DNA of 64,000 nt from Thermoleophilia bacterium (GTDB taxonomy: Bacteria > Actinomycetota > Thermoleophilia > BMS3ABIN01): contig JBAZZU010000011.1 in NCBI GenBank assembly GCA_041658605.1, positions 3,300 to 67,299 of the forward strand, written 5' to 3'. How positions within the stretch are numbered: position 1 is the stretch's first letter; every line of letters starts with the position of its first letter. Position numbers and translations under genes: made by a program. A model generated the notes under the pieces. It did not search any database and was not told where the DNA came from. It saw only the letters and a program-made list of their open reading frames with translations. Positions 1,646-54,982 of the stretch are shown one piece after another.

Positions 1646-3700
1646 CTAATTAAGAACGGTCCCCAGTGCTTCGTTGAAATAGCCATTCCAAAGAACGCGT
1701 TGCGATGCCATTACCGGTGCCGGAGAGCGCGTACCACTGATCCAGGCCTCGACTTTTACCGGTCCACCCATGACTCCGCCAAAGCTGGGGGTCACTTTCG
1801 CTCCGGCGGCAATTGTTCCTGTCTGATATACAGTACCGGCGATTTCAATGGAGTAATCAACCGCGTAATTATTTGAGTTGGCCACCAGTATCCAGTTGAG
1901 ACTTCCGGGGCTCTTTTGATCGTACCATGACCAGTAATATGAGGAATTGAGGCGCTCAACCGGATATCCCGGGACTTCCTCGAAGGAGGGACCCCAAAGT
2001 ATACGCTGTGAAGCCAGGACCTGACGGCGGTCGTTGGCATTCTGCCAGCTACCGCTCTCTATATATGATCTAACTTCAACAGGACCGCCCCTCATTGAAC
2101 CGAAGCGAGGTGTTACCATTTGGCCGGGCGCGAGAACGAAATAGTTCCTGCCGGGATTATCAGGATCCTGCATCTGGCGTCCGCCAATCCATATTTCGGC
2201 CCTGATCGTATCTGTGGCAGTATACGGATTTGCCACGAGAACCCAGTTCATTCCATCAATGTTGTCGTACCAGGTCCAGAGATAGTTGCTGGAAAGTTCC
2301 GAAGCCGGGATTCCCGGTACTTCGTTAAACGCGGTACCATTGCCCATAAGAACACGTTGAGACGAGATTACGTTAGCAGCGGAACCGCCTTGCTGAGTCC
2401 ATGCCTGTACTTCGACCGGACCGCCCGAAATGCCATTGAAGCTTGGCGTGACTTTTTCGTTGGGATTGATCGTGCCGCTATCACGCAGAACTCCGGCAAT
2501 CTTTATCTCATAATAGATCGAATATGCGTTGGGGTTAGCCACCAGAACCCAGTTTAGCGTCCCCCGGGTTTTCTGGTCGTACCATGGCCAGTAATAATGG
2601 TTAGAAAGCCTTGCCTCGTCGGTGCCCAGTACTTCCTCAAGTGATTTACCGGCCCAGAGGATTCTCTGGCTTACGACTATTGGTTGCGTAGTGCTCACTG
2701 TGACGGGCCCGCCAACCACTCCTGGAAACATGGGGGTTTCCGCGGGCGCGCCTACAGCCAGATCTCGATCAGCATATGTCAGTTGTCCGATTTTGACTGA
2801 GGTTCGCGCCGACGCCTGTCGGCCCGCGGGATTTACCATGAGTACCCAGTCATATGTACCAGGAGAGTACTGGTCATACCACGTGAAGTAGTAGCGTTTG
2901 GTCGGAGTGAAATTATCTGCGGTTACAAGCGTGCTGGCCTCAGCAGTTAGTCCAGCAGAATCCCAGGCTACGGCTCTCAAAGTATGGGAGCCCTGCAGAC
3001 CCGTAGTGTCCCATATATAGGAATATGGTGCCGATGCGTCTGATGCTACCAGTGAGCCGTCTATATAGAGGTCGACTTTAGTAATTCCGATGTTGTCCCA
3101 GGCGTTTGCGGTAAAAGTTACCACGCCGCTTACTTTCGAGCTTCCTGTCGGTTGAGGTACGGAAACTGAGGGCGGAGTACTGTCTTCCGAAATGCCGCCA
3201 AAGTCGGTTGTCCAGTACCAGCCGTATGTGGAACCACCCACATAAACCCTTCCTATGCCAATAGCACGGAAGTTGGCGCCGAGCATATTGGCGTTATGGC
3301 CGGGCGAATTCAACCATGCATCATATACAGTTTGCGCTGTCCCGTAACCTGCCGCTATGTTTTCTCCCAGCCAGGTATTGTACGTATAGCCGGCGGCTCG
3401 AATCCGGTCCCAGGGCGTAACGCCTTCAGGGGTGTTGTGGGCAAAATAATTCCTCGCGCCCATGTCATAGCTATGACCCTCTGAAGCATTGTAAAGTGAA
3501 TTTGACAAGGTCAAAGGCGCCAGACCATTGGCTTGCCGGTGATTGTTGATTAATGTAAGGAATGCAAGTTCTTCGTCATCGTATGCATAAGCCGCAGGTG
3601 CTGAAATCAGTACTGTGGCGAGTATGGCTATAAACAGGACAGATATGAAAACCAACATCCTGTTTTTTGAATAACTGATGCTATTGAATGATTCACTCAT
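1646..3700 (-). CDS. Secreted CAP/SCP-domain protein with Ig-like domain and four C-terminal ~100-aa repeats
   Basis: Signal/TM segment; CAP motifs (HSYDMGARNYFAH, GENIAAG, WLNSPGHNANML); Ig-like segment (VDLYIDG..APYSYIWDT); repeated YxWxWYD..NWVLVANP..GGPV..SQRVLW units. Confidence 0.8.
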   Translation of the reverse strand: MSESFNSISYSKNRMLVFISVLFIAILATVLISAPAAYAYDDEELAFLTLINNHRQANGLAPLTLSNSLYNASEGHSYDMGARNYFAHNTPEGVTPWDRIRAAGYTYNTWLGENIAAGYGTAQTVYDAWLNSPGHNANMLGANFRAIGIGRVYVGGSTYGWYWTTDFGGISEDSTPPSVSVPQPTGSSKVSGVVTFTANAWDNIGITKVDLYIDGSLVASDASAPYSYIWDTTGLQGSHTLRAVAWDSAGLTAEASTLVTADNFTPTKRYYFTWYDQYSPGTYDWVLMVNPAGRQASARTSVKIGQLTYADRDLAVGAPAETPMFPGVVGGPVTVSTTQPIVVSQRILWAGKSLEEVLGTDEARLSNHYYWPWYDQKTRGTLNWVLVANPNAYSIYYEIKIAGVLRDSGTINPNEKVTPSFNGISGGPVEVQAWTQQGGSAANVISSQRVLMGNGTAFNEVPGIPASELSSNYLWTWYDNIDGMNWVLVANPYTATDTIRAEIWIGGRQMQDPDNPGRNYFVLAPGQMVTPRFGSMRGGPVEVRSYIESGSWQNANDRRQVLASQRILWGPSFEEVPGYPVERLNSSYYWSWYDQKSPGSLNWILVANSNNYAVDYSIEIAGTVYQTGTIAAGAKVTPSFGGVMGGPVKVEAWISGTRSPAPVMASQRVLWNGYFNEALGTVLN
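1649..2899 (-). repeat. Four tandem protein-level repeats (about 99-115 aa each)
   Basis: Units start near 2899, 2602, 2287 and 1942 and share Y[FW]xWYD, W[VI]L[MV]xN, TP.F.G..GGPV.V, SQR[IV]L and [EN]E[VA].G. Confidence 0.85.
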
Positions 3701-9288: not shown

Positions 9289-9513
9289 ATGCTGCGAGAT
9301 AGAGTTGAACAGGCTTTGGAGAAGATCAGGCCCGCCCTGCAGGCAGACGGCGGCGACCTTGAACTTGTGGATGTAACCGACGAAGGCAAAGTGACCGTAC
9401 GACTTACGGGAGCTTGTGGTAGTTGCCCGATGTCCCAGATGACACTCAAGATGGGTGTTGAGCAGAGACTTCGTCAGGAGGTTCCAGAAGTGGAGACGGT
9501 TGAGGCTATTTAG
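9289..9513 (+). CDS. NifU/Nfu C-terminal domain Fe-S scaffold protein
   Basis: IRPALQADGGD..GACGSCPMS motif; AAGGAGGTGA RBS. Confidence 0.92.
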   Translation: MLRDRVEQALEKIRPALQADGGDLELVDVTDEGKVTVRLTGACGSCPMSQMTLKMGVEQRLRQEVPEVETVEAI

Positions 9514-9565
9514 AAACGCTATTACAGCGCTTCTTGTGGCAACTGTTTCACAATTCCTGATTAAT

Positions 9566-9598
9566 AAAAAAAGCGGCTGAGAAATCGGCCGCTTTTTT
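9566..9598. terminator. Bidirectional intrinsic terminator between the nfu gene and the small peptide gene
   Basis: A7-GCGGCTGA-GAAA-TCGGCCGC-T6. Confidence 0.85.
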
Positions 9599-9615: not shown

Positions 9616-9732
9616 TCAGGGCTGTGGTGGTGGCGGCACAGTTATACTGCACGAAAAATTCACACAATCAAAAGTTATGTTCCTGATGTTATCCTTCTTC
9701 GTAAGAACAGGCTTTTCGTAAGTTGTCTTCAT
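9616..9732 (-). CDS. 38-aa RiPP-like precursor peptide with lasso-type leader (MKTTYEKPVLTKKDNIRNITFDCVNFSCSITVPPPPQP)
   Basis: Translated by hand; AAGGAGGTGG RBS 8 nt before ATG, upstream TATAAT boxes, downstream terminator; YxxPxL followed by Thr at the usual leader spacing. Confidence 0.75.
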   Translation of the reverse strand: MKTTYEKPVLTKKDNIRNITFDCVNFSCSITVPPPPQP

Positions 9733-9868
9733 TTATCCGGCCACCTCCTTCAGTCTGGCTGATTTCTGATTATAAAGCATGAGTATTATACTACGCTTTA
9801 GTTGATTTGAATAGACCCCAGTGGGTCACTGGGCTTCCAGTCAGTGGTTTCCGATGCCCGATTCTTTA

Positions 9869-11944
9869 CTACTCTTCTCTTTCTGCCTGGACCTGATCGA
9901 TGATCTTTTGAGCCAGATGTGCAGGGACTTCCATGTAATGGAGAAAATCCATCGTGTAATCGCCGCGGCCTCCCGTCATGGAACGCAGGTCTGGCGCATA
10001 TGTGAGCATTTCTGCCAGAGGCACCTCCGAGTTGATCTGGCTCATCCTGCCCGTTGGTTCCATTCCCAATACCTTGCCCCGGCGTGAGTTCATATCACCG
10101 ATAACATCCCCGACACTATCCTCGGGTACGGTTATATGAACTGTCATTATCGGTTCAAGGATCACTGGGGTGGCGTTAGCGACCGCCTTTTTCAGGCCCA
10201 TGGATGCGGCTATTTTAAAGGCCATCTCGGATGAATCCACGGGATGATGAGATCCGTCATAGACCTTCACCCTGATATCGACCAGGGGACTTCCGGATAG
10301 CTCACCCTCCTTCATCGCTTCGATGACGCCTTTTTCAACCGCCGGAATAAAGCCACGCGGTATTACGCCGCCGACTACATTGTCGACGAATTCAAAGCCT
10401 TCACCGCTGGTAAGCGGTTCAACCTCAAGCCAGCAGTCACCGTACTGGCCGCGTCCGCCCGTCTGTTTCTTGTATTTGCCCTGCGCTTTTGCGCCGTTAC
10501 GTATGGTTTCAAGATAGGGCACACGGGGCGGCTTAAGCTCTACCTCGACTCCAAAACGGCGCTTCATACGCTCTACAACCACCTCGACATGTACCTGGCT
10601 CAAGCCCGAGATTATGAGCTCGTTGGTCTGCGAGTCGCGTCTGACCACCAGCGTGGGGTCCTCTTCCTGCAGGCGCTTGAGCGATGTGCCGATCTTTTCC
10701 TCATCACCTTTGTTCTTTGGCTCCACGGCAAACGACATGACTGGATTAGGAAAATCCATAGCTGCGAAGGTGACTGATCCGCCCTCGTTGCATAGTGAAT
10801 CTCCCGTGTTGGTCGCCTTGAGCTTTGCGATAGCACCGATGTCACCGGGGCCGATAACATCCAGAGTGCTATTGTCTTTTCCCTGTAACCTCAGCAGCTT
10901 GCCGATATGCTCCTTCGTCTTGCTCACTGGATTATAGACATTGCTGTCGCTTCTGATCTCGCCGGAATATACCCTGAAAATGTTAATTCTGCCGCTGAAC
11001 GGGTCGGCCATCGTCTTGGCGACAAAGGCGGCCAGTGGACCATCGGATTTGCACTCGAGCATAATCTCATCACCGGATGACCCGTCTATGGCCTTTTTCC
11101 CTCCATGCTTCACGGGTGAGGGGATAGCATCGACAATAAGGTTCATCAATAAATCGATGCCGATGGTCTTTGTAGCGCTTCCTGCGCCCACTGGAAAGAC
11201 AGTCCCTGCCGCGACGCCTGCCTTGAGTGCGGAAAAAAGTTCTTCGTTACTCATGTCCTGACCTTCAAGATACTTTTCCATGACGGCGTCATCGTTTTCG
11301 GCGACCACATCCATGAGTTTATCGCGGTATTCCTCAACCTGGTCGGCCATTTCGGCAGGTATTTCAATGTCGCTGACTTTGCCATCTTCATAGTGGTAAG
11401 CCTTCTGGGTCAAGAGATCGATAACACCGCTGAAGTTGTCTTCCGCACCGATGGGAAGCTGTGCGGCGACAGCACCCTGTCCAAAGCTTTCCTGCAACTG
11501 CTCTACAGCCGCGAAGAAATCCGCACGTTCGCGGTCCATCATATTCACGAAAATCAGTCTGCTGACATCGTTGTCCTCACAGTTTTTCCAGAGCCGCTCG
11601 TGCTGTACCTCGACGCCATGGGTTGCGTTTACCGTGAGGATGGCACCTTCCACAACATGGAGAGCAGCGATTGTGTCAGCATGAAAACTTGGGTCTCCCG
11701 GGGTGTCGAAAATGCTAATGCTGCGGTCTCTCCAGGAGAAGTGACAAAGCGTGCCTGATATGGAGTGCTGGCGTTTCTTCTCATCATCATCCCAGTCGGC
11801 CACCGTGGTACCCTGATCGATAGAACCCAGGCGATTCACTGCGCCGGATTTGAAAAGGATGGCTTCGGTGAGGCAGGTCTTGCCGGTTCCACGGTGGCCG
11901 ACTACAGCTACGTTTCTTATTTTTGCGGGATCAACAGCGGGCAT
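9869..11944 (-). CDS. Elongation factor G-like protein (EF-G2 type)
   Basis: GHRGTGKT P-loop, DTPG, EEDPT, KKQTGGRGQYG, DSSEMAF, ILEPIM; divergent G motifs typical of EF-G2; start placed at ATG after AAGGAG. Confidence 0.9.
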   Translation of the reverse strand: MPAVDPAKIRNVAVVGHRGTGKTCLTEAILFKSGAVNRLGSIDQGTTVADWDDDEKKRQHSISGTLCHFSWRDRSISIFDTPGDPSFHADTIAALHVVEGAILTVNATHGVEVQHERLWKNCEDNDVSRLIFVNMMDRERADFFAAVEQLQESFGQGAVAAQLPIGAEDNFSGVIDLLTQKAYHYEDGKVSDIEIPAEMADQVEEYRDKLMDVVAENDDAVMEKYLEGQDMSNEELFSALKAGVAAGTVFPVGAGSATKTIGIDLLMNLIVDAIPSPVKHGGKKAIDGSSGDEIMLECKSDGPLAAFVAKTMADPFSGRINIFRVYSGEIRSDSNVYNPVSKTKEHIGKLLRLQGKDNSTLDVIGPGDIGAIAKLKATNTGDSLCNEGGSVTFAAMDFPNPVMSFAVEPKNKGDEEKIGTSLKRLQEEDPTLVVRRDSQTNELIISGLSQVHVEVVVERMKRRFGVEVELKPPRVPYLETIRNGAKAQGKYKKQTGGRGQYGDCWLEVEPLTSGEGFEFVDNVVGGVIPRGFIPAVEKGVIEAMKEGELSGSPLVDIRVKVYDGSHHPVDSSEMAFKIAASMGLKKAVANATPVILEPIMTVHITVPEDSVGDVIGDMNSRRGKVLGMEPTGRMSQINSEVPLAEMLTYAPDLRSMTGGRGDYTMDFLHYMEVPAHLAQKIIDQVQAEREE

Positions 11945-12115
11945 AAGAAACAACTCCTTTGGTTGAAAAATATTATTGGCCGGGGGCTATGTCCACAAAT
12001 ATGGAAAAAGCCCGCCAGGAAAGGAATTTTATCCCTTTAAAATTTGGATTGCCATAGGGAAATGAAAATGAAGTTGAAAGATGGCGGATGCGGGACTAGC
12101 TTTCAATGGTTATCT

Positions 12116-13090
12116 TTAATCCTTTCTTTGAATCCCAGCAGCCTTTACGGCGATATGCTTGACTGAATGAACCACGGTCTTCGTGGATAGATCGACAACA
12201 TACAGGGTTCCATCCTTTCCTGGCATGAAGCCGGTCACAAACATGTACTTTCCATCTTCACTGAAGTCGGCATCATAAAAAACGTCATCCGGTTCCGCTG
12301 TCAGCCGGTAAATGCCCGCAATGGAGAGATCGGCCGCGCTTACCTCGATGATATTTCCCCTGGCAAGGACATAAACCAGTCTTCCGTCGGGAGACATGAC
12401 TGCTTCATGAATCTCCTGCACCGGAAGCGAAACCGTTTTCTCATTCAGGTTTGCAGGCCATCTGGTCTTAAGGAGCTGCAAAGTGCCGCTTCCATCTCCC
12501 GATATATATGCAGACAATCCGTCCGGTGACCAGGCGATACCGGTCACATGGGCAAGTTCGGGGATTGTTATTACTGCATCCAGCAGCTTGTCATTTGCAG
12601 GGTCTAATATAAACAGCGTGCCGAAACCGCTGGCGGGCGCCTTGTCTGCGGCATAGAGCCTGCCATCTGGTCCGGATGCCAGCATCGACAGGCTTGAAGC
12701 CGGCGTCTCGATAGTCACGCCGCTGTCTATCCAGTTATTGCCATCCCAGCGGAACTTATCTATGACGCCGTTCGCGCCGCTGGCCACATACATGGATCCG
12801 CCGTCTTGTGTGACGAACATGTCGCTGGGAGCCGCCGCGCTTGTCTGCTCCACGGTCTTCTCAACATAGCCGCTGATGTTGTCATAAATGCGGATACTGC
12901 CCCAGCCCTCAACGGGTCCATTCTCATCAGCTATATAGAGGAGTGCTTTCTGCCAGCCTCCACTGCGGTCCACTTCGACCCGCTCGGGGGCCGACGTATC
13001 GGGCGGCTGGTCCGTGCAGCCAGTCATCAACAGAAAACATGAGAGGATAAAAGTGGTTAGCACGTACCCTGCGGATTTGCGCTGAATCAT
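12116..13090 (-). CDS. Lipoprotein with probable beta-propeller (YncE/YVTN-like)
   Basis: Lipobox LMTG-C; repeated blade motifs (SPDGxxxY, TQDGGSMY, SEDGKYMF). Confidence 0.7.
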   Translation of the reverse strand: MIQRKSAGYVLTTFILSCFLLMTGCTDQPPDTSAPERVEVDRSGGWQKALLYIADENGPVEGWGSIRIYDNISGYVEKTVEQTSAAAPSDMFVTQDGGSMYVASGANGVIDKFRWDGNNWIDSGVTIETPASSLSMLASGPDGRLYAADKAPASGFGTLFILDPANDKLLDAVITIPELAHVTGIAWSPDGLSAYISGDGSGTLQLLKTRWPANLNEKTVSLPVQEIHEAVMSPDGRLVYVLARGNIIEVSAADLSIAGIYRLTAEPDDVFYDADFSEDGKYMFVTGFMPGKDGTLYVVDLSTKTVVHSVKHIAVKAAGIQRKD

Positions 13091-13234
13091 GAAACCTGAG
13101 CCTCCATTTTATGATTTGCATCACTTTATACCACTAAAGTCATGGTATCGCGGTTTGGGTGTTGCTAAACAGGGAATATTTCTTATGTATGAAGTGCTGT
13201 CTATTTATTCATTTCAGGCGGTAGAGGAGTAGCG

Positions 13235-13471
13235 ATGCCAACCAATTGTCCAGGAAGCGATGTAACCATAACCACAATAAACTGCCCGAAATGCGGGGAA
13301 GAGGTGGAGCTGTTTACGGGAGATTCAAAGGCAAAATGTCCCGGTTGCGGTATATCGGTGCGCCGGGAAGTGGCGTCCTGCATTGAATGGTGTCCGGGCG
13401 CGAGTGAATGTTTCCGGCATGTGTTTGAAGAAGACAGAGCCCGCGAAGAGAAGGAAGCGTCTGAAGACTGA
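13235..13471 (+). CDS. Small Cys-rich metal-binding protein (double zinc-ribbon-like)
   Basis: CPG, CPKC, CPGC and CIEWCPGASEC (8 Cys in 78 aa); GAGGAG RBS; followed by terminator. Confidence 0.75.
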   Translation: MPTNCPGSDVTITTINCPKCGEEVELFTGDSKAKCPGCGISVRREVASCIEWCPGASECFRHVFEEDRAREEKEASED

Positions 13472-13522
13472 AAGAAGCAAGATAGCCTGCTCTTAATACC
13501 TGCAAACAAATACTTTTTCAAT

Positions 13523-13552
13523 AAAACCTGCAAGTGTGCTTTTGCAGGTTTT
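13523..13552 (+). terminator. Hairpin terminator after Cys-rich gene
   Basis: AAAACCTGCAA-n8-TTGCAGGTTTT. Confidence 0.6.
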
Positions 13553-13590
13553 CCCTAATCCAGGTTCCAGGTGGCATCAAAAAGCCATGT

Positions 13591-13619
13591 TTGACAAAGC
13601 CACGTCACGTAACTAGTAT
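13591..13619 (+). promoter_or_regulatory. Sigma70 promoter of groESL
   Basis: TTGACA-17 nt-TAGTAT. Confidence 0.8.
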
Positions 13620-13630
13620 ATGTCTCGCTC

Positions 13631-13657
13631 TTGGCACTCTATAGTCGAGAGTGCCAG
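13631..13657 (+). promoter_or_regulatory. CIRCE operator (HrcA site)
   Basis: TTGGCACTC-N9-GAGTGCCAG versus consensus TTAGCACTC-N9-GAGTGCTAA, between promoter and groES. Confidence 0.92.
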
Positions 13658-13701
13658 ATAATTGGCTATTTTATAAACCAGGAAATTAAGGAGGGTTGAT
13701 T

Positions 13702-13995
13702 ATGAACTTGAAACCTCTGGAAGACAGGGTGATCGTCGAGGCAGTTGAATCTGAAGAAGTGACCGCCAGTGGCATCTACCTTCCCGATTCAGCACAGGAA
13801 AAGCCCCAGCGTGGCAAAGTTATCGCCGTCGGTGATGGCCGGCTCGACAAGGAAGGCAAGCGGATTCCGTTAGACGTCAAAAAAGGCGACGTTGTTATCT
13901 ACAGCAAGTATGGTGGAACCGAGGTTAAAATCGAAGGCAATGAAGTGCTGATTCTGAAGGCCAGCGACATCCTTGCCAAAGTAGTTAAAAAATAA
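13702..13995 (+). CDS. groES: Co-chaperonin GroES
   Basis: [27 protein letters not shown]; AAGGAGG RBS before ATG 13702. Confidence 0.97.
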
Positions 13996-14007
13996 TGAAG
14001 GGAGTGA

Positions 14008-15627
<1,620 letters not shown>

Positions 15628-24416: not shown

Positions 24417-25268
24417 GTGAAAATAACAGGCACAACAAAGTTGCTGGGCATTCTGGGTGACCCTGTATCCCACAGCCTGTCTCCACTGATGCATAATCGT
24501 GCGTGTGAGGAGTTGGGTCTGGATATCTGTTATGTGCCATTGAACGTCAAGGCAGATCAGCTTGCTATGGCCATCGACGGCCTCAGGGCGATGCGGTTTC
24601 TGGGCGCCAATATAACAATTCCACACAAGGTATCGGCGCTGGCCCTAATGGACAGACTGGCGGATAGCGCTAGAAACGTCGGAGCGGTAAATACAGTAGT
24701 TAACAAGAACGGATTGCTCACAGGCCATAACACCGATGGCGCCGGCTTCATCCGGTCTCTGGAGGATGCGACATCGATCGATTATGCTGCTACATCCGTT
24801 GTCCTGCTGGGAGCCGGCGGTGCTGCCAGGTCGATAGCCTTTGCGTTGGCAGAAAAAAAAGTATCCAGAATTGTGATCATCAACCGTACGCAGGAGCGCG
24901 CTGTTGAACTCAAAAGGTTGCTCGAACATGATTTTTCGTCATTGGAGATAGTTGTAAAGGGGACAGATGATGAATACGGAGATGATATTTCTGCTGGAAA
25001 ACTAGTGATAAACGCGACTTCAACGGGTCTGGAGGCCGACCTAAAGAGTGCACCGGTGTGGGTCGATAGATTAACGAAAGATCACGTTGTCTGCGACATA
25101 ATTTATAGGGCACAGGAAAAAAATCCACTCCTGGTCGCAGCGCGAGCCAAAGGGGCAACTACATTGGGCGGACTCGGCATGCTTCTTCATCAAGGAGTTA
25201 TTGCGTTCCATTTATGGACCGGAATAGAGCCGCCAGTCGATGTTATGAGGAATTCGATTGAATCCTAG
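24417..25268 (+). CDS. aroE: Shikimate dehydrogenase
   Basis: HSLSP, NITIPHK, GAVNT, NTDG, GAGGAA, ML.HQG; start placed at GTG after GGAGG. Confidence 0.95.
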   Translation: MKITGTTKLLGILGDPVSHSLSPLMHNRACEELGLDICYVPLNVKADQLAMAIDGLRAMRFLGANITIPHKVSALALMDRLADSARNVGAVNTVVNKNGLLTGHNTDGAGFIRSLEDATSIDYAATSVVLLGAGGAARSIAFALAEKKVSRIVIINRTQERAVELKRLLEHDFSSLEIVVKGTDDEYGDDISAGKLVINATSTGLEADLKSAPVWVDRLTKDHVVCDIIYRAQEKNPLLVAARAKGATTLGGLGMLLHQGVIAFHLWTGIEPPVDVMRNSIES

Positions 25269-26973
25269 CGAACTTACATCCCGTACACCCCGCAAGAAAT
25301 TACAGCCTATCGGCGAGATACTCGTCGCCAAGGAACTAATTTCTCGCGAACAGCTTGACGAAGTCCTGGAAAAGCAGAAGGACTCGCCGAAGCGACTCGG
25401 TGAGATCCTCGTCGATGACGGCATCCTGACGCAGGAGCAGCTGAATATCGCCCTGGCGGAAAGACTTGGTGTCGAGAGCCTTGGTCTGGATGAATACAAC
25501 ATCGATTCTCTGGCCGCGACAATGATACCGGAGAAGCTGGCCAGGCGTTATGGCGCCATACCGGTAAAGTTCGTGGATGAAAATACCCTGCTGGTTGCGA
25601 TGGTCGATCCCACAAACGTGTTTGCAATCGATGACCTGCGCATGATGACCGGCTATGACATCAAGCCGGCAATCGCATCGACGGAAGATGTTTTCAATCA
25701 GATTTCAAAAATTCATCGGATGGGCGATTCTGCCAGTAGCCAGGTCGAAGAAGATGATGAGGACTTGCTTGGCGAAACCTCAGTAGACGCTGATATACGC
25801 GAGGTGGCCTCTGAAGCTCCGATCGTCAAACTGGTCAATGGCGTCATCAGCCAGGGCGTGGACGATGGGGCGAGTGACCTTCATTTCGAGCCTCAGGAGA
25901 AAGAACTGGCAATCCGTTTCAGGATTGACGGCGTGCTCCATGCTGTTATGTCGGTGCCAAAGCGCATGCAGTCGGCGGTGCTTTCGCGCCTCAAGGTCAT
26001 GGCTGATATCGACATAGCCGAGAGGCGCATACCCCAGGATGGCCGCATAGGATTAATAGTTGGAGGCAAGCCCATCGATATACGTGTTGCCTCTATGCCA
26101 ACGGTTTATGGTGAGAAGATAGTTCTGCGAATTCTTGACAAGAGCAGTGTCATGCTCAATCTCTCCGATCTTGGTTTCGCCGAGAAGGCGTTGAAGCGTT
26201 ACGAACGATCGTACACGAAACCTTATGGAGCCATGCTGGTCACGGGCCCGACCGGTAGCGGCAAATCCACGACTCTTTATGCGACCCTGAACGTTCTCAA
26301 TTGCAAGGAGAAGAACATCATCACTGTTGAGGACCCTGTTGAATACAGGCTTGCGGGCATCAACCAGACACAGATCAATCCCAAGGCAGGCCTGACGTTT
26401 GCTTCCGGGCTCAGGGCGATCCTGCGCTCAGATCCGGATATCGTGATGGTTGGTGAGATCCGTGACAAAGAAACCGCACAGATAGCTATCGAGTCAGCGT
26501 TAACCGGGCATCTTGTATTGAGCACTTTGCACACAAATGACGCGCCGGGTGCTTTGACGCGTCTTACTGAGATGGGGATCGAGCCATTCCTGTCAGCATC
26601 AGCCATCGAGTGTGTTTTAGCGCAGAGACTGGCAAGGCGCCTCTGCTCAAACTGCAAGGAACCATATCATCCTACGGATGAAGCCCTGGCTCAGAACGGT
26701 TTCCCCCAGGAAGTCATAGGCAAAGACATCACACTGTATCGTTCCGCTGGTTGTCCCCGCTGTAACAACACGGGATATAAGGGAAGATTTGGAATTTATG
26801 AAGTCATGCTTGTGAGCGAAGCTATCGAGCGGTTAACGGTGGAGAGAAAAAGTGCCGATGAGATTTCGAGAGTAGCTCAGGCTGAAGGAATGGTTACTCT
26901 GCGTGAAGATGGCATAGATAAAGTCATTCAGGGCATAACATCGATAGAAGAGATAGCCAGGGTCATCATTTGA
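25258..26973 (+). CDS. pilB: Type IV pilus assembly ATPase PilB with N-terminal MshEN-like domain
   Basis: IGEILVAKELIS..LGEILVDDGIL repeats, ASDLH, PQDG, GPTGSGKST, EDPVEY, GEIRD, two CxxC zinc motifs. Confidence 0.95.
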   Translation: MNPSELTSRTPRKKLQPIGEILVAKELISREQLDEVLEKQKDSPKRLGEILVDDGILTQEQLNIALAERLGVESLGLDEYNIDSLAATMIPEKLARRYGAIPVKFVDENTLLVAMVDPTNVFAIDDLRMMTGYDIKPAIASTEDVFNQISKIHRMGDSASSQVEEDDEDLLGETSVDADIREVASEAPIVKLVNGVISQGVDDGASDLHFEPQEKELAIRFRIDGVLHAVMSVPKRMQSAVLSRLKVMADIDIAERRIPQDGRIGLIVGGKPIDIRVASMPTVYGEKIVLRILDKSSVMLNLSDLGFAEKALKRYERSYTKPYGAMLVTGPTGSGKSTTLYATLNVLNCKEKNIITVEDPVEYRLAGINQTQINPKAGLTFASGLRAILRSDPDIVMVGEIRDKETAQIAIESALTGHLVLSTLHTNDAPGALTRLTEMGIEPFLSASAIECVLAQRLARRLCSNCKEPYHPTDEALAQNGFPQEVIGKDITLYRSAGCPRCNNTGYKGRFGIYEVMLVSEAIERLTVERKSADEISRVAQAEGMVTLREDGIDKVIQGITSIEEIARVII

Positions 26974-27006
26974 TCCTTTAGGGCAATAGAAAGAGGGGGA
27001 AGCAGA

Positions 27007-28074
27007 ATGGACCTTGTCGATATACTTGTCGAAGTCCTCGAACGAAACGCCTCGGATCTTCATCTGGCGGTAGGTTCTCCGCCAGTAATCAGGATTTCAG
27101 GGAAACTTATCAGGCTGGATTATCCCCGCCTTACCAGCAATGACACCAGAGACCTGATTTACAGCATTCTCTCTCAGGATCAGCGGCAGAGGATAGAGAA
27201 TGAGTGGGAGATCGATTTTTCATATTCTGTTCCAGGCAGGGCGCGTTTTCGTGTTAATGCCTATTTTCAGCGGAACAGTCTAGGGGCCGCCTTCAGATTG
27301 ATACCGGCTCAGATAAAGAGTGTCAAAGAGCTAATGCTGCCCGAAGTAATCCACAAGATGGCTAACAAGCCAAGAGGTTTTGTTATTGTCACGGGTCCTA
27401 CGGGCAGCGGTAAGTCAACGACGCTTGCGGCGCTGATCCAGGAAATAAATGAAACCCGCGAAGAGCACATCATGACGATTGAAGATCCCATCGAGTTTCT
27501 GCATCGCCATATAAAGTCGGTAGTAAACCAGCGTGAAGTTGGAACAGATACAAAATCATTCAATCGGGCATTGAAATCAGTTTTACGCCAGGATCCGGAT
27601 GTGATTCTGGTTGGTGAGATGAGAGACACCGAGACCATGCAAACTGCCTTGACGGCGGCTGAGACTGGTCACCTGGTGTTTGCCACCCTGCACACGCAGG
27701 ATGCTCCCCAGACCATCGACCGCATCATCGACGTCTTTCCGCCCCACCAGCAAAGCCAGATCCGGGTACAGCTGGCATCTACGCTGATGGGAGTCTGTAC
27801 GCAGCAGCTTTTACCCACGATTGATGGTACCTCACGCGTGCCTGCCTGCGAGGTTCTTATACCGACGCCGGCTGTAAGGAATCTTATTAGAGAGGCCAAG
27901 ACGCATCAGATCTATTCGGTGATGCAGACTGGAGCCCAATTCGGGATGCAGACCATGGACAGTTCTCTCGCGGAACTGTTCAGGAGAAACAAGATCACCA
28001 AGGAAATGGCGATTCGCAGATCGAGTAATCCAGAAGAGCTGGAACGTCTGATGATGGGAAGACAGGTAGCATAA
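27007..28074 (+). CDS. pilT: Type IV pilus retraction ATPase PilT
   Basis: ASDLHL, GPTGSGKSTT, EDPIEF, DPDVILVGEMRD, TLHT, AVRNLIRE. Confidence 0.96.
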   Translation: MDLVDILVEVLERNASDLHLAVGSPPVIRISGKLIRLDYPRLTSNDTRDLIYSILSQDQRQRIENEWEIDFSYSVPGRARFRVNAYFQRNSLGAAFRLIPAQIKSVKELMLPEVIHKMANKPRGFVIVTGPTGSGKSTTLAALIQEINETREEHIMTIEDPIEFLHRHIKSVVNQREVGTDTKSFNRALKSVLRQDPDVILVGEMRDTETMQTALTAAETGHLVFATLHTQDAPQTIDRIIDVFPPHQQSQIRVQLASTLMGVCTQQLLPTIDGTSRVPACEVLIPTPAVRNLIREAKTHQIYSVMQTGAQFGMQTMDSSLAELFRRNKITKEMAIRRSSNPEELERLMMGRQVA

Positions 28075-28113
28075 GGCCCCAATCAGGGAAGGGAAGAAGG
28101 CAGGTGTGGATCT

Positions 28114-29331
28114 ATGAATACTTTTGTATATAAAGTTCGCGATATTCGCGGTATAGCCAGCAAGGGAGAGCTTGAGGCAGACAGCAGGGCTGCGGTTGCC
28201 GCAGAGCTTCGCGGCAAGGGTTACACGGTAGTTGATATTAATGAAAAGAGCGCCGGCACCTCTTTCAGTTCGTTATTGAGCAGCTCACAGCGGATCAAGT
28301 CAAAGCATATAACAGTGTTTTCGCGCCAGTTTGCGACGATGATCAACTCCGGCCTCGCGCTTCTCCGCGCCCTGTATATCCTGGAAAACCAGACTCAGAA
28401 CACCAAATTCAAAGCCGTTATATCAGAGGTTCGCAGTGATGTTGAGGGCGGCTCAGCACTTTCGGATTCGATGGAGAAGCACCCGAGAGTATTTAACCGT
28501 CTCTATGTAAGCATGGTGAGGGCGGGAGAGGTGGGCGGTATCCTGGACGAAACGCTCGAAAGAGTTGCAAATCAGCTGGAAGCCGAGGACAGTCTCAAGC
28601 GCATGGTTAAGTCGGCAATGGTTTATCCGCTGCTGATCGCCGTATTTGCCCTGCTTGTGATGATGGCGATGATGCTGTTTATCATTCCGATCTTTTCCAA
28701 GATGTACGCCGACCTTGGAAGCCAGCTGCCGATGCTTACTCGTATTATGGTTAATATCAGTGACACCCTGAAAAGCGTCTGGGGCATCTTTATCTTTGCG
28801 GCTATTGTTGGTGCCATATACGGTTTGGGAAGGCTTAAAAGGACACCTCAGGGAACCGCTGCGTGGGATCGCGCCAAGTTGCATATCCCGATGGGTATTG
28901 GAGAAATCATTCGCAAGCTGGCAATGGCCAGATTCTCCAGAACTCTGAGCACACTTGTATCCAGTGGTGTTCCTATCCTGCAGGCTATTGAAATAACCGG
29001 TGATACGGCAGGCAACGTTGTCGTATCTGACGCGATGGTCTCTGTTAAGGCGGGTGTGAAGGAAGGCCGCCCGATGTCCGAATCCCTCGTAAAAGTCAAC
29101 GTCTTTCCTCCGATGGTCACGCAGATGATCTCTGTTGGAGAAGAAACGGGAGCTGTAGATGTAATGCTCACAAAAATCGCTGATTTCTATGAGGACGAGG
29201 TTAACGCCTCCGTGAAGTCACTGACATCCATACTTGAGCCGATAATGATGATGGGTGTAGGCGGCCTGGTCGGCGTTATTGTAATTGCTCTCTATCTGCC
29301 GATTTTCAACCTCATGTCCGTTGTCAAATAG
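28114..29331 (+). CDS. pilC: Type IV pilus platform protein PilC (GspF family)
   Basis: FSRQFATMINSGL, GEVGG, SAMVYP, VGEETG. Confidence 0.95.
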   Translation: MNTFVYKVRDIRGIASKGELEADSRAAVAAELRGKGYTVVDINEKSAGTSFSSLLSSSQRIKSKHITVFSRQFATMINSGLALLRALYILENQTQNTKFKAVISEVRSDVEGGSALSDSMEKHPRVFNRLYVSMVRAGEVGGILDETLERVANQLEAEDSLKRMVKSAMVYPLLIAVFALLVMMAMMLFIIPIFSKMYADLGSQLPMLTRIMVNISDTLKSVWGIFIFAAIVGAIYGLGRLKRTPQGTAAWDRAKLHIPMGIGEIIRKLAMARFSRTLSTLVSSGVPILQAIEITGDTAGNVVVSDAMVSVKAGVKEGRPMSESLVKVNVFPPMVTQMISVGEETGAVDVMLTKIADFYEDEVNASVKSLTSILEPIMMMGVGGLVGVIVIALYLPIFNLMSVVK

Positions 29332-29401
29332 TCGTGAGGAAGAAAAATAGTCGGCAGGATGTAGCTGACATTACAAATGCGCCGTGAGATTGGCAGATTA
29401 A

Positions 29402-30238
29402 ATGTCTGGCAAAATTGAGATTCAAACCGATGTTTGCGAAGGGAATGGCGTCATAACCGGCGCTGTCCTGGATTTTCCGCGCAATGAAAAGGCAGAGCGG
29501 AAAAACGAGTCGCTTACCGCGGAATATCAGGTCTCCCGAGACCAAGCAGTCCTGGAGAAGATAATTACTCGCAACCAGGGGCTTCTGCACGCTGTTCTGA
29601 GACGCTTCAAATACTTCCCTGATCCATATGAGGATCTTCTGCAGGTTGCAAATCTTGGATTGATCAAGGCTGTGCAAAGATTTGACTGTAATCGTGGTGT
29701 CGGATTCTCCAGTTACGCAACTGCGCTTGTTGACGGCGAGGTTCGCCATTACCTCAGGGACAATGTTCTTATGCGTCAGCCGAGGTGGCTCAGGGCGGCA
29801 GAGAAACGTATCGAAGACGCCTCAATAGAGCTTAATCGTAAACTGAAGCGTCCCCCGACACTTAAGGAGCTTGCACTCGAGGTCAACATTTCCGAAGAGG
29901 GCATTCTGGAGATACTGAGAGTGGTAGCTTCGGTAGGACTCCATCCCGTTGATGATATGGACTCGCATGAGGGTGTTAATGCTCAACCGGACGCAAACGT
30001 GGTTCGTTCACTCCATTATGAGTCCTTTGTGCTGCCTATCGAAGACAAGATTGCGCTACAGGAAGCCCTGGATGCGCTGAGCTCACTTCATAAGAAGATC
30101 GTCTACCTCCTTTTTTACAAGGATCTGACACAAACGCAGGTCGCCAGGGAGCTGGGTCTCTCCCAGCGAAAGGTGTCCCGGGAATCAGCAAAGGCACTCG
30201 GGCGGCTCAAGACTGTCATGAACACGAAGATCTTTTAG
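29402..30238 (+). CDS. SigB/SigF/SigG-family RNA polymerase sigma factor
   Basis: Region 2 EDLLQVANLGLIKAVQRFD..FSSYA..GEVRHYLRD, region 4 TQTQVARELGLSQRKVSR. Confidence 0.9.
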   Translation: MSGKIEIQTDVCEGNGVITGAVLDFPRNEKAERKNESLTAEYQVSRDQAVLEKIITRNQGLLHAVLRRFKYFPDPYEDLLQVANLGLIKAVQRFDCNRGVGFSSYATALVDGEVRHYLRDNVLMRQPRWLRAAEKRIEDASIELNRKLKRPPTLKELALEVNISEEGILEILRVVASVGLHPVDDMDSHEGVNAQPDANVVRSLHYESFVLPIEDKIALQEALDALSSLHKKIVYLLFYKDLTQTQVARELGLSQRKVSRESAKALGRLKTVMNTKIF

Positions 30239-30250
30239 AAAATGCTAAAG

Positions 30251-30276
30251 CTTTATTCGGCAGACGCCGAATAAAG
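30251..30276 (+). terminator. Hairpin after the sigma gene
   Basis: CTTTATTCGGC-AGAC-GCCGAATAAAG; no U tract. Confidence 0.45.
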
Positions 30277-30346
30277 GCCCGTGTTCACGGCTTTACCCCG
30301 GCGGGAAGTGTCTAGGAAAAAAGCAGTTGGGTAGTATAGGGGTGAA

Positions 30347-30425
30347 GGTGAAAAAGGCAAACCACTCGTAAGGGTGGGGCGCAAAGCTACAGGACCAGGA
30401 ATACTTGGTCGGCTGGGCTGCCACC
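30347..30425 (+). ncRNA. c-di-GMP-I (GEMM) riboswitch aptamer
   Basis: P1 GGTG/CACC; GGCAAAC-CACTC-GTAA-GGGTG P2; GCGCAAAGC junction; P3 ending GGGCTGCC; G20 and C92 equivalents present. Confidence 0.92.
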
Positions 30426-30444
30426 AGAGGTTCAGGAAGATATG

Positions 30445-30482
30445 GATCTGTGGTTTGCCATCAGGCCGCAGATCTTTTTTTT
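30445..30482 (+). terminator. Riboswitch expression-platform terminator
   Basis: GATCTGTGGTTTG-CCAT-CAGGCCGCAGATC followed by T8, upstream of the pilin RBS. Confidence 0.88.
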
Positions 30483-30528
30483 GTGGTCTGGCGAAAATAA
30501 TAAACAAAATTGAAAAGGAGGTGACAAC

Positions 30529-30921
30529 ATGATTTCGAAACTTGGAAAAAGAATGCAGGTTAAGGGTGAAGGTGGTTTTACTCTGATCGAACTGTTGGTG
30601 GTTATCATCATCATTGCTATCCTGGCAGCGATCGCCATTCCGATGTACTTAAGCCAGCGTCAGAAGGGCTGGAACGCCAACATGCAGAGTGATCTACGTA
30701 ACGCCGCTGTCGCGGAGGAGAGTTACTTCACGGACAATGCAGCTTATACGAACGTGATTGCGAATCTGGAGCTTCAGGGATTCAATCCTTCAGCTAACGT
30801 GACGCTCGCAGTGGCCTCTGCAGATGCTGCCGGATATTGCATTAATGCAACATATACCGGTTACGCGACCAGATATCATCTTAATAGTACAGATGGTGAT
30901 CCCCGGACAGGTACTTGCTAG
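30529..30921 (+). CDS. pilA: Type IVa major pilin
   Basis: GG|FTLIELLVVIIIIAILAAIAIP class III signal, C-terminal Cys pair, AAGGAGGTG RBS. Confidence 0.93.
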   Translation: MISKLGKRMQVKGEGGFTLIELLVVIIIIAILAAIAIPMYLSQRQKGWNANMQSDLRNAAVAEESYFTDNAAYTNVIANLELQGFNPSANVTLAVASADAAGYCINATYTGYATRYHLNSTDGDPRTGTC

Positions 30922-30969
30922 CGAGCCTGACTGAGGTAATTCGAAGCTAGTGTGAGAACAAAATAATAT

Positions 30970-31001
30970 GATGATGGCGGGCCATTCGGCCCGCCATCAT
31001 C
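30970..31001 (+). other. Perfect 14-bp stem-loop between the two pilin genes
   Basis: GATGATGGCGGGCC-ATTC-GGCCCGCCATCATC; no U tract. Confidence 0.8.
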
Positions 31002-31073
31002 TGTAAGAGGCTGATTAACTATCACCCGTTCAGATGCCGATTCAATAGTCGATATCCAGCGGGGGGAGAAAAA

Positions 31074-31472
31074 ATGAAAATGCGCGCTTTCCGGGAAAGC
31101 CTGTCCAGTCGGGACGGCTTTACTCTTATCGAGTTACTGGTCGTAATCATCATCATTGCCATTCTTGCCGCGATAGCCATTCCTGTTTATCTTACCCAGC
31201 GCCAGAAAGCCTGGGATGCCAACAGTAAAAGTGATCTGAATACCGCCGCTGTTGCCCAGGCGACTTATAACGCGGATTTCGGTGTTTATACCGGCGACGA
31301 GGCCGATCTTAAAGCCCGGGGTTATAACAGGTCCGCGAATATTACACTCTCAATTCCCACGAGCGGCGCCACGTTCTGTATGGAGACCTTCCATAGCGGT
31401 GATCCATCAAGGGTCTGGTTCGTGGATAGTGGTTCGGGCAGTCCGAACCCAACGCTTGGTAATTGTCCCTGA
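31074..31472 (+). CDS. Second major-type pilin paralogue
   Basis: DG|FTLIELLVVIIIIAILAAIAIP; C-terminal Cys pair. Confidence 0.92.
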   Translation: MKMRAFRESLSSRDGFTLIELLVVIIIIAILAAIAIPVYLTQRQKAWDANSKSDLNTAAVAQATYNADFGVYTGDEADLKARGYNRSANITLSIPTSGATFCMETFHSGDPSRVWFVDSGSGSPNPTLGNCP

Positions 31473-31808
31473 TATCCAGATCTTAATCCGGTCCGGCAAT
31501 TTCGGATACACTGCTGATACACCGATTCACCAGCGTATTTCCTTAAGCTCAGGTTTCATCTGCCAGGTTATTTTGCGCAGGCTCCGGGACCGTCAGCAGC
31601 CTTTCTGATGAGGGTGAGATTCTAAGTAATCAGCTTCCCCTCTTCCCGCCTGGACCGCCGCATGTACCTTCTTCCAGTCCTTTTCTAATAGAACCCATCA
31701 ATGATTATTTCAAGGCGCCTGGGAATGTGCCCAGGGAAACTGGACCTGATCAGACCATATAGGAATCAACCCGGCTGTCGATGCAACTATAGAAGGGATT
31801 GTTGCACC

Positions 31809-32390
31809 ATGTCTGTTTGCGTTCGACATAGCGTTTGTTTGTTGCCATGTGGAGTCCAGTATTCCTCGTGGGCATTTAGAAGTACCCAGAAGGCCTCTTC
31901 AGCAATAAATCGTTCATCAATCTCCATACGCTCGCATGATGCGCGTGGCTTCACAATGATCGAGGTAATGATCACCGTTGCGCTGATGAGCATCCTCATG
32001 GTTATGACGGCGGGTGCGCTCACCTACTATTTTTCGGGTAAGGCGCTGGACACATCGACGAGGGAGCTGACTTCCCAGATAAGAGAGGCACAGACACTTG
32101 CGGTGTCTACCGGAAACACATACAGGATAGATTTCAGCAATCCGGACAGGAAGAGCTATCAGATGCAATACAGGCAGGGTGGCAACTGGGTAAATGTCAG
32201 GGCAGCTCAGCGGCTTCCAGGTGACACTGAGTTCAGCTCCGGTTCACTGCCATCTTTTGGCGGAGATACATATATGGATTTCTATCCCAGGGGAACAACT
32301 GAAAGCGGCCAGATAGTGGTTCACGACCGTTTTGGCAGAAGCAAAACCGTAAGCGTGAACGGTGAGACCGCCAACGTCAACGTTAACTAG
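31809..32390 (+). CDS. FimT/GspH-like minor pilin
   Basis: RG|FTMIEVMITVALM at about 31947-31990, F.P.GT motif near C-terminus; start uncertain (ORF open from 31701). Confidence 0.8.
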   Translation: MSVCVRHSVCLLPCGVQYSSWAFRSTQKASSAINRSSISIRSHDARGFTMIEVMITVALMSILMVMTAGALTYYFSGKALDTSTRELTSQIREAQTLAVSTGNTYRIDFSNPDRKSYQMQYRQGGNWVNVRAAQRLPGDTEFSSGSLPSFGGDTYMDFYPRGTTESGQIVVHDRFGRSKTVSVNGETANVNVN

Positions 32391-32404
32391 AAAAGGGTAG
32401 GAGA

Positions 32405-34144: not shown

Positions 34145-34158
34145 ACAAGAGGACAGGC

Positions 34159-34764
34159 ATGAGCAGATTATTGAAAAGGGTTGAATTTGAGCGCAGCGGA
34201 CGTGAGCAGGGATTCACTCTGATCGAGATGCTGGTTTCGATCTCGATCCTGACCGTAATCATGGCGGGCATGTTCACTTTCCTGTTCGGCGCGAGCAGGC
34301 ACTGGAACACAGGCCAGAACAGCGCGGACATGACCGAGAACGCGAGGTTGGGATTAAACCGCATGACGCGCGAGATAAAGCAGTCAACCCAGGTTACGGA
34401 TGCCCAGACGGCGCAGGTCACATTCACGGTCAATTTTGGCAGCGGTAGCGAGACGATCACATATGGCTTTTCACCCGGCTCTAATGGTGAGCCTGGAGAA
34501 GTCTGGCGAAATACCTCAGCATCACCAGGAAATATAACTCTTATAAGCAATGTAGAGAGCGTCCAGTTTGTCTATTACGGGAATGATTACAAATGCGACA
34601 TCAATAATGACGGCATCATCAGGGATTTAGAGCTCCAGGGTTGCGGCGGCAGCGCGGTATCCAAGATTGCAAGGGTGGATTTCATTCTTAACATGAGAGC
34701 CGGCAATGAATCGGTCCAGACTTTTGCGGATCAGGCGTGGCTGAGAAATCGAACGGCAGACTAA
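34159..34764 (+). CDS. PilW/GspJ-like minor pilin
   Basis: QG|FTLIEMLVSISIL, LNRMTREIK helix. Confidence 0.85.
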   Translation: MSRLLKRVEFERSGREQGFTLIEMLVSISILTVIMAGMFTFLFGASRHWNTGQNSADMTENARLGLNRMTREIKQSTQVTDAQTAQVTFTVNFGSGSETITYGFSPGSNGEPGEVWRNTSASPGNITLISNVESVQFVYYGNDYKCDINNDGIIRDLELQGCGGSAVSKIARVDFILNMRAGNESVQTFADQAWLRNRTAD

Positions 34765-34775
34765 TGAGGGGTGAA

Positions 34776-52924: not shown

Positions 52925-53193
52925 CTCAGATGCTCCGTTTCTGTCATGCCTGGTTTCAAACCGAGTAATATCAAACACGCACATGGCGTGACTTTTCCGT
53001 ATTCTCCAGCCATCACTCATACCCTTCCCGGAAGGAAGTGGCCAGGATGGTCATAACTCATCGTTTAAATGCTTGCCACATGTTGTTGTTTCAACCCTCG
53101 GGCGTTAACCCCTGCATAAAGTCGAATCTTTCTTAAAGGTTTTTTTTGCCTGTACCGATGGGGTTTGAGCAGGATTTCCAATTTAGGGCGGTC

Positions 53194-54951: not shown

Positions 54952-54982
54952 TAAAAGTTCCAGCAGTCAGCCAGGTGACATC

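Follow-up and report, generated by a model that had tools for sequence, protein, structure and literature searches.

A 64,000-nucleotide stretch of contig JBAZZU010000011.1 from a Thermoleophilia bacterium (the whole of which is called the window here) carries, directly behind a gene for elongation factor G (EF-G), an open reading frame (ORF) of 38 codons and a TGA stop at 9616..9732 on the minus strand. Its product, MKTTYEKPVLTKKDNIRNITFDCVNFSCSITVPPPPQP, raises a simple question: what is a peptide whose first half reads like the leader of a lasso peptide, and whose second half cannot become one? An earlier note, made from the letters alone, had proposed an orphan precursor of an undescribed class of peptides made by ribosomes and modified after translation (RiPPs). 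We find a genuine gene, belonging to a multicopy family most of whose members are coupled to exported proteins with a common C-terminal domain (CTD). The reading that we put first, tentatively and at slightly under an even chance, is that of a leader-guided precursor from the lasso world, which would be processed in trans by lasso-type machinery lacking the cyclase and would work with the CTD proteins.

A conserved small gene and its family

That the ORF is a genuine protein-coding gene under purifying selection was confirmed at the EF-G locus, using a synteny set of 80 loci fetched via EF-G relatives. In the seven closest loci (L001-L007), where EF-G is 75-93% identical and the metagenome-assembled genomes (MAGs) are labelled Thermoleophilia, Gaiellales or Actinomycetes, a homologous small ORF was found at the same place behind EF-G in every case; it was absent from all 73 more distant EF-G loci. 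Across the eight orthologues the ratio of non-synonymous to synonymous substitution (dN/dS) ranges from 0.07 to 0.35, and synonymous sites are for the most part saturated. Since the ribosome-binding site, two TATAAT boxes and terminator described earlier are also all present, the real small gene that the earlier note had seen is borne out. Exact look-ups of the peptide and of its DNA in public collections gave no match.

A homologue search, suggested earlier as a check, found conserved homologues both next to EF-G in these seven relatives and, as a multicopy family, elsewhere. The orthologue profile returned 28 strong protein matches of about 40 amino acids, one of which (P0023) carries the NCBI name ‘lasso RiPP family leader peptide-containing protein’. 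A genome scan gave 62 loci, almost all of them from MAGs assigned by label to the same uncultured actinobacterial group, with up to nine paralogues per MAG and several copies at contig ends. MAG contigs often break inside the peptide gene (as at the contig ends of L092, L103, L129, L141, L144 and L146), and the copy numbers are underestimates because a multicopy gene collapses or breaks assemblies. Paralogues within one genome have unrelated flanks and diverged third codon positions, which rules out a mobile DNA repeat as the cause of the multiple copies and places the conservation at the protein level. The term ‘orphan’ thus describes the window copy and not the family, which reaches nine copies per genome, most of them coupled to exported CTD proteins. 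Literature searches found no description of this peptide family.

The family consensus is x(5-12)-YEKP[VE]LxKHxNLKDITFECPxWQCSVxVPPPPA. In an alignment of 33 sequences, Y, P, L, both Cys residues and S are invariant, with K, N, T and F nearly so, and the core follows the pattern [FL]-[DE]-C-x-x-[WF]-x-C-S-[VI]-x-[VI]-P-P-P-P. The family profile scores 82 bits on the window ORF, the sole family copy in the window, which belongs to the most divergent subfamily, that adjacent to EF-G, and has Phe in place of Trp. An exhaustive HMMER search over 1.84 billion representative proteins found more distant members, in which ITFxxxx[W]xCS and the leader are retained, the first Cys is gone and Asp/His/Ser-rich tails stand in place of the Pro tail, leaving [WF]-x-C-S as the sole core motif kept in the most distant of them. 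The two whose contigs were looked up are located in the same MAGs as the family. Two profile matches, P0186 and P0205, were set aside as spurious, being long repetitive proteins. Of the two Phe-x-Cys motifs pointed out earlier, then, both are present in the window copy, and it is the first that proves not to be universal.

The leader-like half of the window peptide (residues 1-21; 9670..9732, minus strand) reads Y5-x-x-P8-x-L10-x9-T20-F21, and the spacing of Y5, P8, L10 and T20, read directly, is identical to that of lasso Y-17/P-14/L-12/T-2. Residues 1-20 match the lasso-leader model NF033528, at 14.6 bits for the window copy, which is below the cut-off of 33. Over 29 members, NF033528 matches 13, NF033521 seven and NF033534 three, and the only curated models that family members match are lasso-leader models. 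At family level both YxxPxL and the Thr at -2 are found, and recognition by a RiPP recognition element (RRE) is predicted from them. The homology of this half to lasso-type leaders is therefore supported by motif spacing and profile matches, and the lasso-type leader of the earlier note stands. Cleavage by a B2-type protease is predicted after F21.

The core-like half (residues 22-38, DCVNFSCSITVPPPPQP; 9619..9669, minus strand) has a Pro-rich tail at its end. It begins DCVNFSCSI, with Cys23 at 9666-9664, Phe26 at 9657-9655, Cys28 at 9651-9649 and Ser29 at 9648-9646, all on the minus strand. Core position 1 is Asp, Glu or Asn across the family, and positions 7-9 are C-S-[VI] in all members, with no Asp or Glu in any. 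Formation of the lasso macrolactam is therefore excluded, and what had been said of the window copy, that it cannot be a canonical lasso peptide, holds for every member.

Exported partners and processing genes in relatives

The neighbouring ORFs of 71 peptide loci were clustered. At more than 40 loci an exported protein of 150-1060 amino acids is encoded a short way ahead of the peptide gene, both genes being on the same strand. The N-terminal modules of these partners vary (rhodanese, YVTN propeller, Big_13/fn3), and what they share is the CTD, of about 110 amino acids, for which there is no Pfam or NCBIfam match. In 44 of its 46 occurrences the domain is C-terminal and the peptide gene comes directly after; in the other two it is N-terminal and the peptide gene comes directly before. 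An AlphaFold2 (AF2) model of a minimal CTD member of 153 amino acids (mean pLDDT confidence 82) consists of a transmembrane helix and an Ig-like beta-sandwich. A fold search with it gave generic beta-sandwich matches only, the nearest including, weakly, the peptide-binding ear domains of adaptins. In L154, too, the gene after a divergent paralogue encodes a protein with a CTD-like domain. No CTD gene neighbours the copies behind EF-G and at SLOG/hemC, which are nonetheless under selection.

The peptide, the CTD proteins and a lipoprotein adjacent to a kinase gene have in common a C-terminal tail of the form hydrophobic-x-hydrophobic-P-P-x-P. This lipoprotein, of low complexity and about 180 amino acids, is encoded directly upstream of the kinase described below (L123:6442-6969, L137:12607-13170, L140:11576-12124), and its conserved tail GGIEIVVPPAP resembles the SVxVPPPPAP of the peptide and the YxYPGPxPxP of the CTD proteins. 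These similar tails may constitute a shared C-terminal recognition motif.

Some of the cassettes formed by a CTD gene and a peptide gene have further neighbours. A rhodanese-domain exported protein is the CTD carrier in L081-L084, L100 and L102; in L081-L084 the genes behind it encode thioredoxin reductase, thioredoxin and a tautomerase, and the one before it an ArsR-type regulator, a hint that this cassette has to do with thiols or sulfur. In L138 (3103-6037) and L142, a MacB-type ABC transporter (FtsX permease and ATPase) lies just upstream of the cassette, with a sigma-54 two-component pair further upstream. The same two loci contain a PqqD-like ORF (87 amino acids, 29.5 bits), which we rejected as a core component, being confined to two close genomes, and which adjoins a 369-amino-acid Zn-finger-like protein found in the same two genomes only.

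In at least eight MAGs, two or three cassettes at one locus flank the lipoprotein and a kinase of 341 amino acids (cluster 19), the kinase lying between cassettes in L093, L097, L123, L131, L136, L137, L140 and L157. It matches TIGR04352, TIGR04355 and Hpr_kinase_C, and the precomputed Pfam annotation lists PF27840 (ScmC). Its P-loop GKST and DD motif are invariant, and its AF2 model (pLDDT 85) matches PEPCK and HprK. An RRE in the N-terminal domain was considered and rejected, as the modelled domain resembles PEPCK and not a winged helix. In relatives, a GGDEF protein is encoded beside the cassette locus that contains the kinase (L123:10248-11240).

More distant relatives of the kinase (30-40% identity) sit in cassettes with PqqD, the B1-type protein that provides an RRE, and Transglut_core3, the B2-type protease. 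Some of these add an NTP_transf_5 nucleotidyltransferase and, as in L148 and L149, short precursors that share the leader, for example MIVKKIYVKPLLKDLGFIRDFTHSGLEDF. Within the window's own clade, MAG JAJRWQ01, which also carries the EF-G-adjacent peptide, has at its hrcA/hemW locus an operon (L156) of kinase, PqqD (68 bits), Transglut_core3 (54 bits), DUF2079 and NTP_transf_5 (202 bits), with a convergent CTD protein beside it. Kinase, PqqD and Transglut_core3 with an adjacent CTD protein are also present, among the matches listed, in L147, L159 and L160. No Asn_synthase-type lasso cyclase was found in the kinase-B1-B2 loci L147, L148, L149, L156 and L159, or among the annotated recurrent neighbour clusters of the 71 peptide loci.

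The surroundings of these operons are of some interest in themselves. In L156 (12030-13919 and 17264-19051) and L159 (13974-21107) the kinase-PqqD-B2 operon runs on into genes for a DUF2079 membrane protein and NTP_transf_5; its neighbours are a type I phosphodiesterase in L156 and a sulfotransferase, an APS kinase and several glycosyltransferases in L159, which suggests possible glycosylation or sulfation of the product and a link to the cell envelope. The kinase-PqqD-B2 operons of relatives adjoin hrcA-dnaJ, and a distant peptide is encoded between grpE and dnaJ (L150); this recurring chaperone neighbourhood may be a coincidence.

The idea that radical-SAM enzymes install Cys or aromatic crosslinks, put forward in the earlier note, found no backing: the recurrent neighbours of the 71 loci include no radical-SAM maturase candidate and no SPASM, YcaO, LanB/C/M or P450 protein. 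The radical-SAM genes that were seen are of HemN_C/HemW type (next to the kinase) and of UPF0004 type (methylthiotransferase-like), in a conserved hrcA-dnaJ housekeeping block, and CxxxCxxC occurs in a single neighbour cluster, that of a helicase Zn-binding domain. Most peptide copies have no adjacent maturase.

The window itself agrees with what had been said of it, that it holds no maturase. Profile searches of the 64 kb for the kinase and the CTD gave no match, none of its ORFs of at least 80 amino acids contains CxxxCxxC, and no PqqD was found; therefore any processing must take place in trans. To look further into the window's organism we used its source sample, a landfill metagenome run (X1) that holds 99% of the window's sampled 31-letter words. 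In this run the window has a depth of 35-47 and contigs that match the kinase gene of the closest relative at 92-95% identity have one of 31-45, whilst the peptide-core stretch (L123:5392-5615) reaches ~153 against ~39 for single-copy DNA. As the contig depths match and the peptide-core stretch piles up, the organism very probably has the kinase and further copies of the peptide.

A possible pathway and its rivals

How might these parts work together? The pathway that we propose draws on the associations of peptide with CTD, of CTD with kinase, B1 and B2, and of kinase with cassettes, together with the known lasso roles of B1, B2, HPr-kinase homologues and nucleotidyltransferases. The leader (YEKPVL...T20) would dock on the PqqD-type RRE, and the B2-type Cys protease (Transglut_core3) would remove it after Thr20-Phe21. 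Ser29, which is invariant, would be phosphorylated by the kinase, and this phosphate may be extended by the nucleotidyltransferase. A Cys23-Cys28 disulfide would close a six-residue loop in place of the macrolactam. The resulting small Pro-tailed (phospho)peptide might then act with the CTD of exported proteins, as ligand, cap or tag, and the window copy would be a paralogue that lost its CTD partner, came to sit behind EF-G and is processed in trans. The RRE-dependent, non-lasso, trans-processed precursor of the earlier note is thus borne out in part, with a PqqD-type RRE in the clade (L156, 68 bits), a non-lasso core and no maturase in the window; it is the radical-SAM part that lacks support.

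Several known systems resemble parts of this arrangement. Lasso precursors with split B1/B2 have the same Y-x-x-P-x-L and Thr -2 spacing, and PqqD and Transglut_core3 genes occur in the clade; unlike them, however, the family has a core position 1 that is not Gly, Ala, Ser or Cys, no acidic residue at 7-9, no cyclase gene in the examined loci, and a strongly conserved core encoded in many dispersed copies coupled to exported proteins. HPr-kinase homologues phosphorylate Ser on linear lasso precursors, the acceptor Ser being C-terminal, and in pseudomycoidin a nucleotidyltransferase glycosylates the Ser phosphate (PMC8498205). As with paeninodin and pseudomycoidin, an HprK-fold kinase is encoded in relatives with B1/B2 and NTP_transf_5; in contrast to them, the family's Ser is internal (C-S) and not C-terminal, there is no lasso fold, and a second kinase paralogue lies among the CTD-peptide cassettes. 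The cassettes of the NCBIfam HprK-related kinases A and B (TIGR04352, TIGR04355) and of ScmC (TIGR04249/PF27840) provide the best kinase HMM matches and share the co-occurrence of PqqD and short precursors with the same leader, but the precursor described here is longer, conserved, multicopy and CTD-linked, and the kinase is far below the equivalog cut-offs. To our knowledge, those cassettes are predicted PqqD-associated peptide-modification systems with no known products. Prochlorosins, finally, have many dispersed precursor genes, one trans-acting enzyme set and hypervariable cores. The likeness lies in multiple unlinked precursor genes with a conserved leader and few enzyme loci; the family cores, in contrast, are nearly identical, and the chemistry is unrelated.

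A number of observations weigh against the proposed pathway. The 64-kb window lacks PqqD (RRE), B2, kinase and CTD alike, and only the kinase was traced, indirectly, to the window's organism, the DNA of the L156 operon being too divergent for metagenome mapping. In the immediate clade the kinase-B1-B2 operon is present in at least one MAG (L156), with three related lineages besides. The cassette kinase scores 56-60 bits against an equivalog cut-off of 200, and is thus related but not an equivalog, and hhalign found no RRE-like domain in its N-terminal domain or in other proteins of the kinase-cassette loci. The one invariant Ser lies within the peptide, which has Pro or Ala as its last residue, the window copy ending in ...PPPPQP and the family in PPPPA(P). 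The peptide has no signal peptide, and no export route by which it would meet the CTD is evident. None of the RNA runs searched holds the peptide stretch. Lastly, RiPP cores are typically hypervariable, whereas here the core is as conserved as the leader across the family, which would also fit an unmodified small protein.

It is this last possibility that forms the main rival. The 38-mer might be active in unmodified form, perhaps carrying a Cys23-Cys28 disulfide, and serve as binding partner, chaperone or cap for the CTD or another target, a micro-protein in its own right, the leader-like part being a beta-strand docking motif inherited from lasso precursors. Besides conservation over the full length, with the core equal to the leader, this would account for the strict pairing of peptide genes with CTD genes, the P-P-x-P-type tail common to peptide, CTD proteins and lipoprotein, the many copies with no neighbouring maturase, and the weak match of the CTD beta-sandwich to adaptin ear domains. 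It sits less well with a motif spacing that is exactly that of lasso leaders and with matches to lasso-leader models only, with the recurrence of kinase, PqqD and B2 genes beside CTD proteins and of the kinase inside cassettes, and with the continued selection on the EF-G and SLOG/hemC copies, which have no CTD neighbour. We consider it rather unlikely, but the first alternative to be reckoned with. A RiPP crosslinked by a radical-SAM or other enzyme (Cys-aromatic or thioether), with an unlinked maturase, is a good deal less probable: the F-D-C and F-S-C motifs, the standing of [WF]-x-C-S as the most conserved core motif and the RRE in the clade all speak for it, but the neighbour survey of the 71 loci yielded none of the enzymes in question, the radical-SAM genes near the kinase operon are of housekeeping types, and the first Cys is lost in distant paralogues.

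Two explanations remain. In one, the ORF is a cis-acting regulatory mini-ORF whose PPPP run stalls ribosomes in an EF-P-dependent manner, controlling the stability of the EF-G transcript or the expression of neighbouring genes, with the product itself irrelevant. The polyproline C-terminus is indeed conserved in the clade, and the gap behind EF-G or other genes is short. However, dN/dS is low over the whole peptide and not just the Pro run, a terminator follows with no same-strand gene downstream to regulate, and distant paralogues exchange the Pro tail whilst keeping the leader and WxCS; we regard this explanation as very improbable. In the other, the peptide is a canonical lasso precursor, as its leader and the B1 and B2 homologues of the clade would invite one to think. 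With Asp, Glu or Asn at core position 1, Cys-Ser-Ile/Val at positions 7-9 in all members and no Asn_synthase-type cyclase in the kinase-B1-B2 loci or among the annotated recurrent neighbours of the 71 peptide loci, we give it next to no weight.

A wider form of the proposed pathway would see cyclase-less lasso machinery, in a class-level lineage of uncultured Actinomycetota, as a housekeeping system that matures one conserved multicopy peptide, the dedicated partner of the CTD, for the tagging, capping or anchoring of surface proteins. This extension is doubtful, and we offer it as a conjecture. Were the pathway itself true, leader recognition by B1/B2 would also work without a cyclase and on a conserved, multiplied substrate, which would extend the reach of RiPP machinery; a RiPP-like peptide would be genetically tied to a family of exported proteins via an uncharacterised domain; and the indicated function would be one in the cell envelope, not that of a secondary metabolite. 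For biochemistry there are cloneable parts, namely the peptide, both kinases, PqqD, B2, the nucleotidyltransferase and the CTD, and the analysis proposes names and roles for sets of ‘hypothetical proteins’ in a poorly known lineage of subsurface, landfill and groundwater.

Expression signals and surroundings of the window copy

The start of the peptide gene is well defined, with an in-frame TAA immediately 5' of the ATG and a Shine-Dalgarno sequence, AAGGAGGTGG, at 9741..9750 on the minus strand, whose GGAGG core lies 11 nucleotides before the ATG. The spacing from ribosome-binding site to start is 10-12 nucleotides in the orthologues, as in the window ORF, and a AGGAGGTG box is found at equal distance before the ATG or TTG start in six of the seven. 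A candidate promoter of the gene's own is made up of two -10-like TATAAT hexamers on the minus strand (9790-9785 and 9774-9769); the first reads TACAAT in L001, the closest relative. A sigma-70 consensus scan of the region upstream of the peptide did not report a promoter, owing to the poor -35 hexamers.

On the other side of the gene, RNAfold gives a hairpin followed by U7 at 9598-9565 (-17.6 kcal/mol, z -3.2), part of a bidirectional intrinsic terminator, A6-GCGGCCGA-UUUC-UCAGCCGC-U7 (9565..9598, both strands), which is common to the peptide gene and the convergent Nfu-type gene. A consensus terminator scan did not call the 9598-9565 hairpin because its stem has a mismatch; an equivalent GC hairpin terminator is present in all seven orthologues. 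A known RNA was rejected, as the Rfam matches were sub-threshold only and all on the terminator hairpin.

The EF-G gene that served as synteny anchor (9869..11953, minus strand; NF009381, 931 bits) is directly upstream. It lies outside any str operon and is flanked by a YVTN-like beta-propeller lipoprotein gene and the peptide gene; groES-groEL is some 2 kb further upstream (region 12116-15627), and the gene may be a second EF-G copy. The convergent gene (9289..9513, plus strand) is of NifU C-terminal/Nfu type, matching the C-terminal region of TIGR02000 (E 1e-19), and recJ lies beyond it.

In the window at large, 34 ORFs were annotated with Pfam and NCBIfam (about 15 further ones not individually), and comprise housekeeping, type IV pilus, signalling and transport functions. 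An exported protein of 684 amino acids (1646-3700, minus strand) was rejected as a CTD protein, having been clustered via its CAP and Ig-like domains only and containing no CTD; it consists of CAP/SCP and Big_7 domains and then about four repeats of ~100 amino acids with no family match. A type IV pilus cluster occupies 25258-36104, with a T2SSE ATPase, a PilT-like ATPase, a T2SSF platform protein, a sigma-70 family gene, several N-methyl-motif pilins and GspH- and PilX-like minor pilins. Two adjacent paralogous proteins of GGDEF and HD-GYP type (HD_5) are encoded at 53146-56779.

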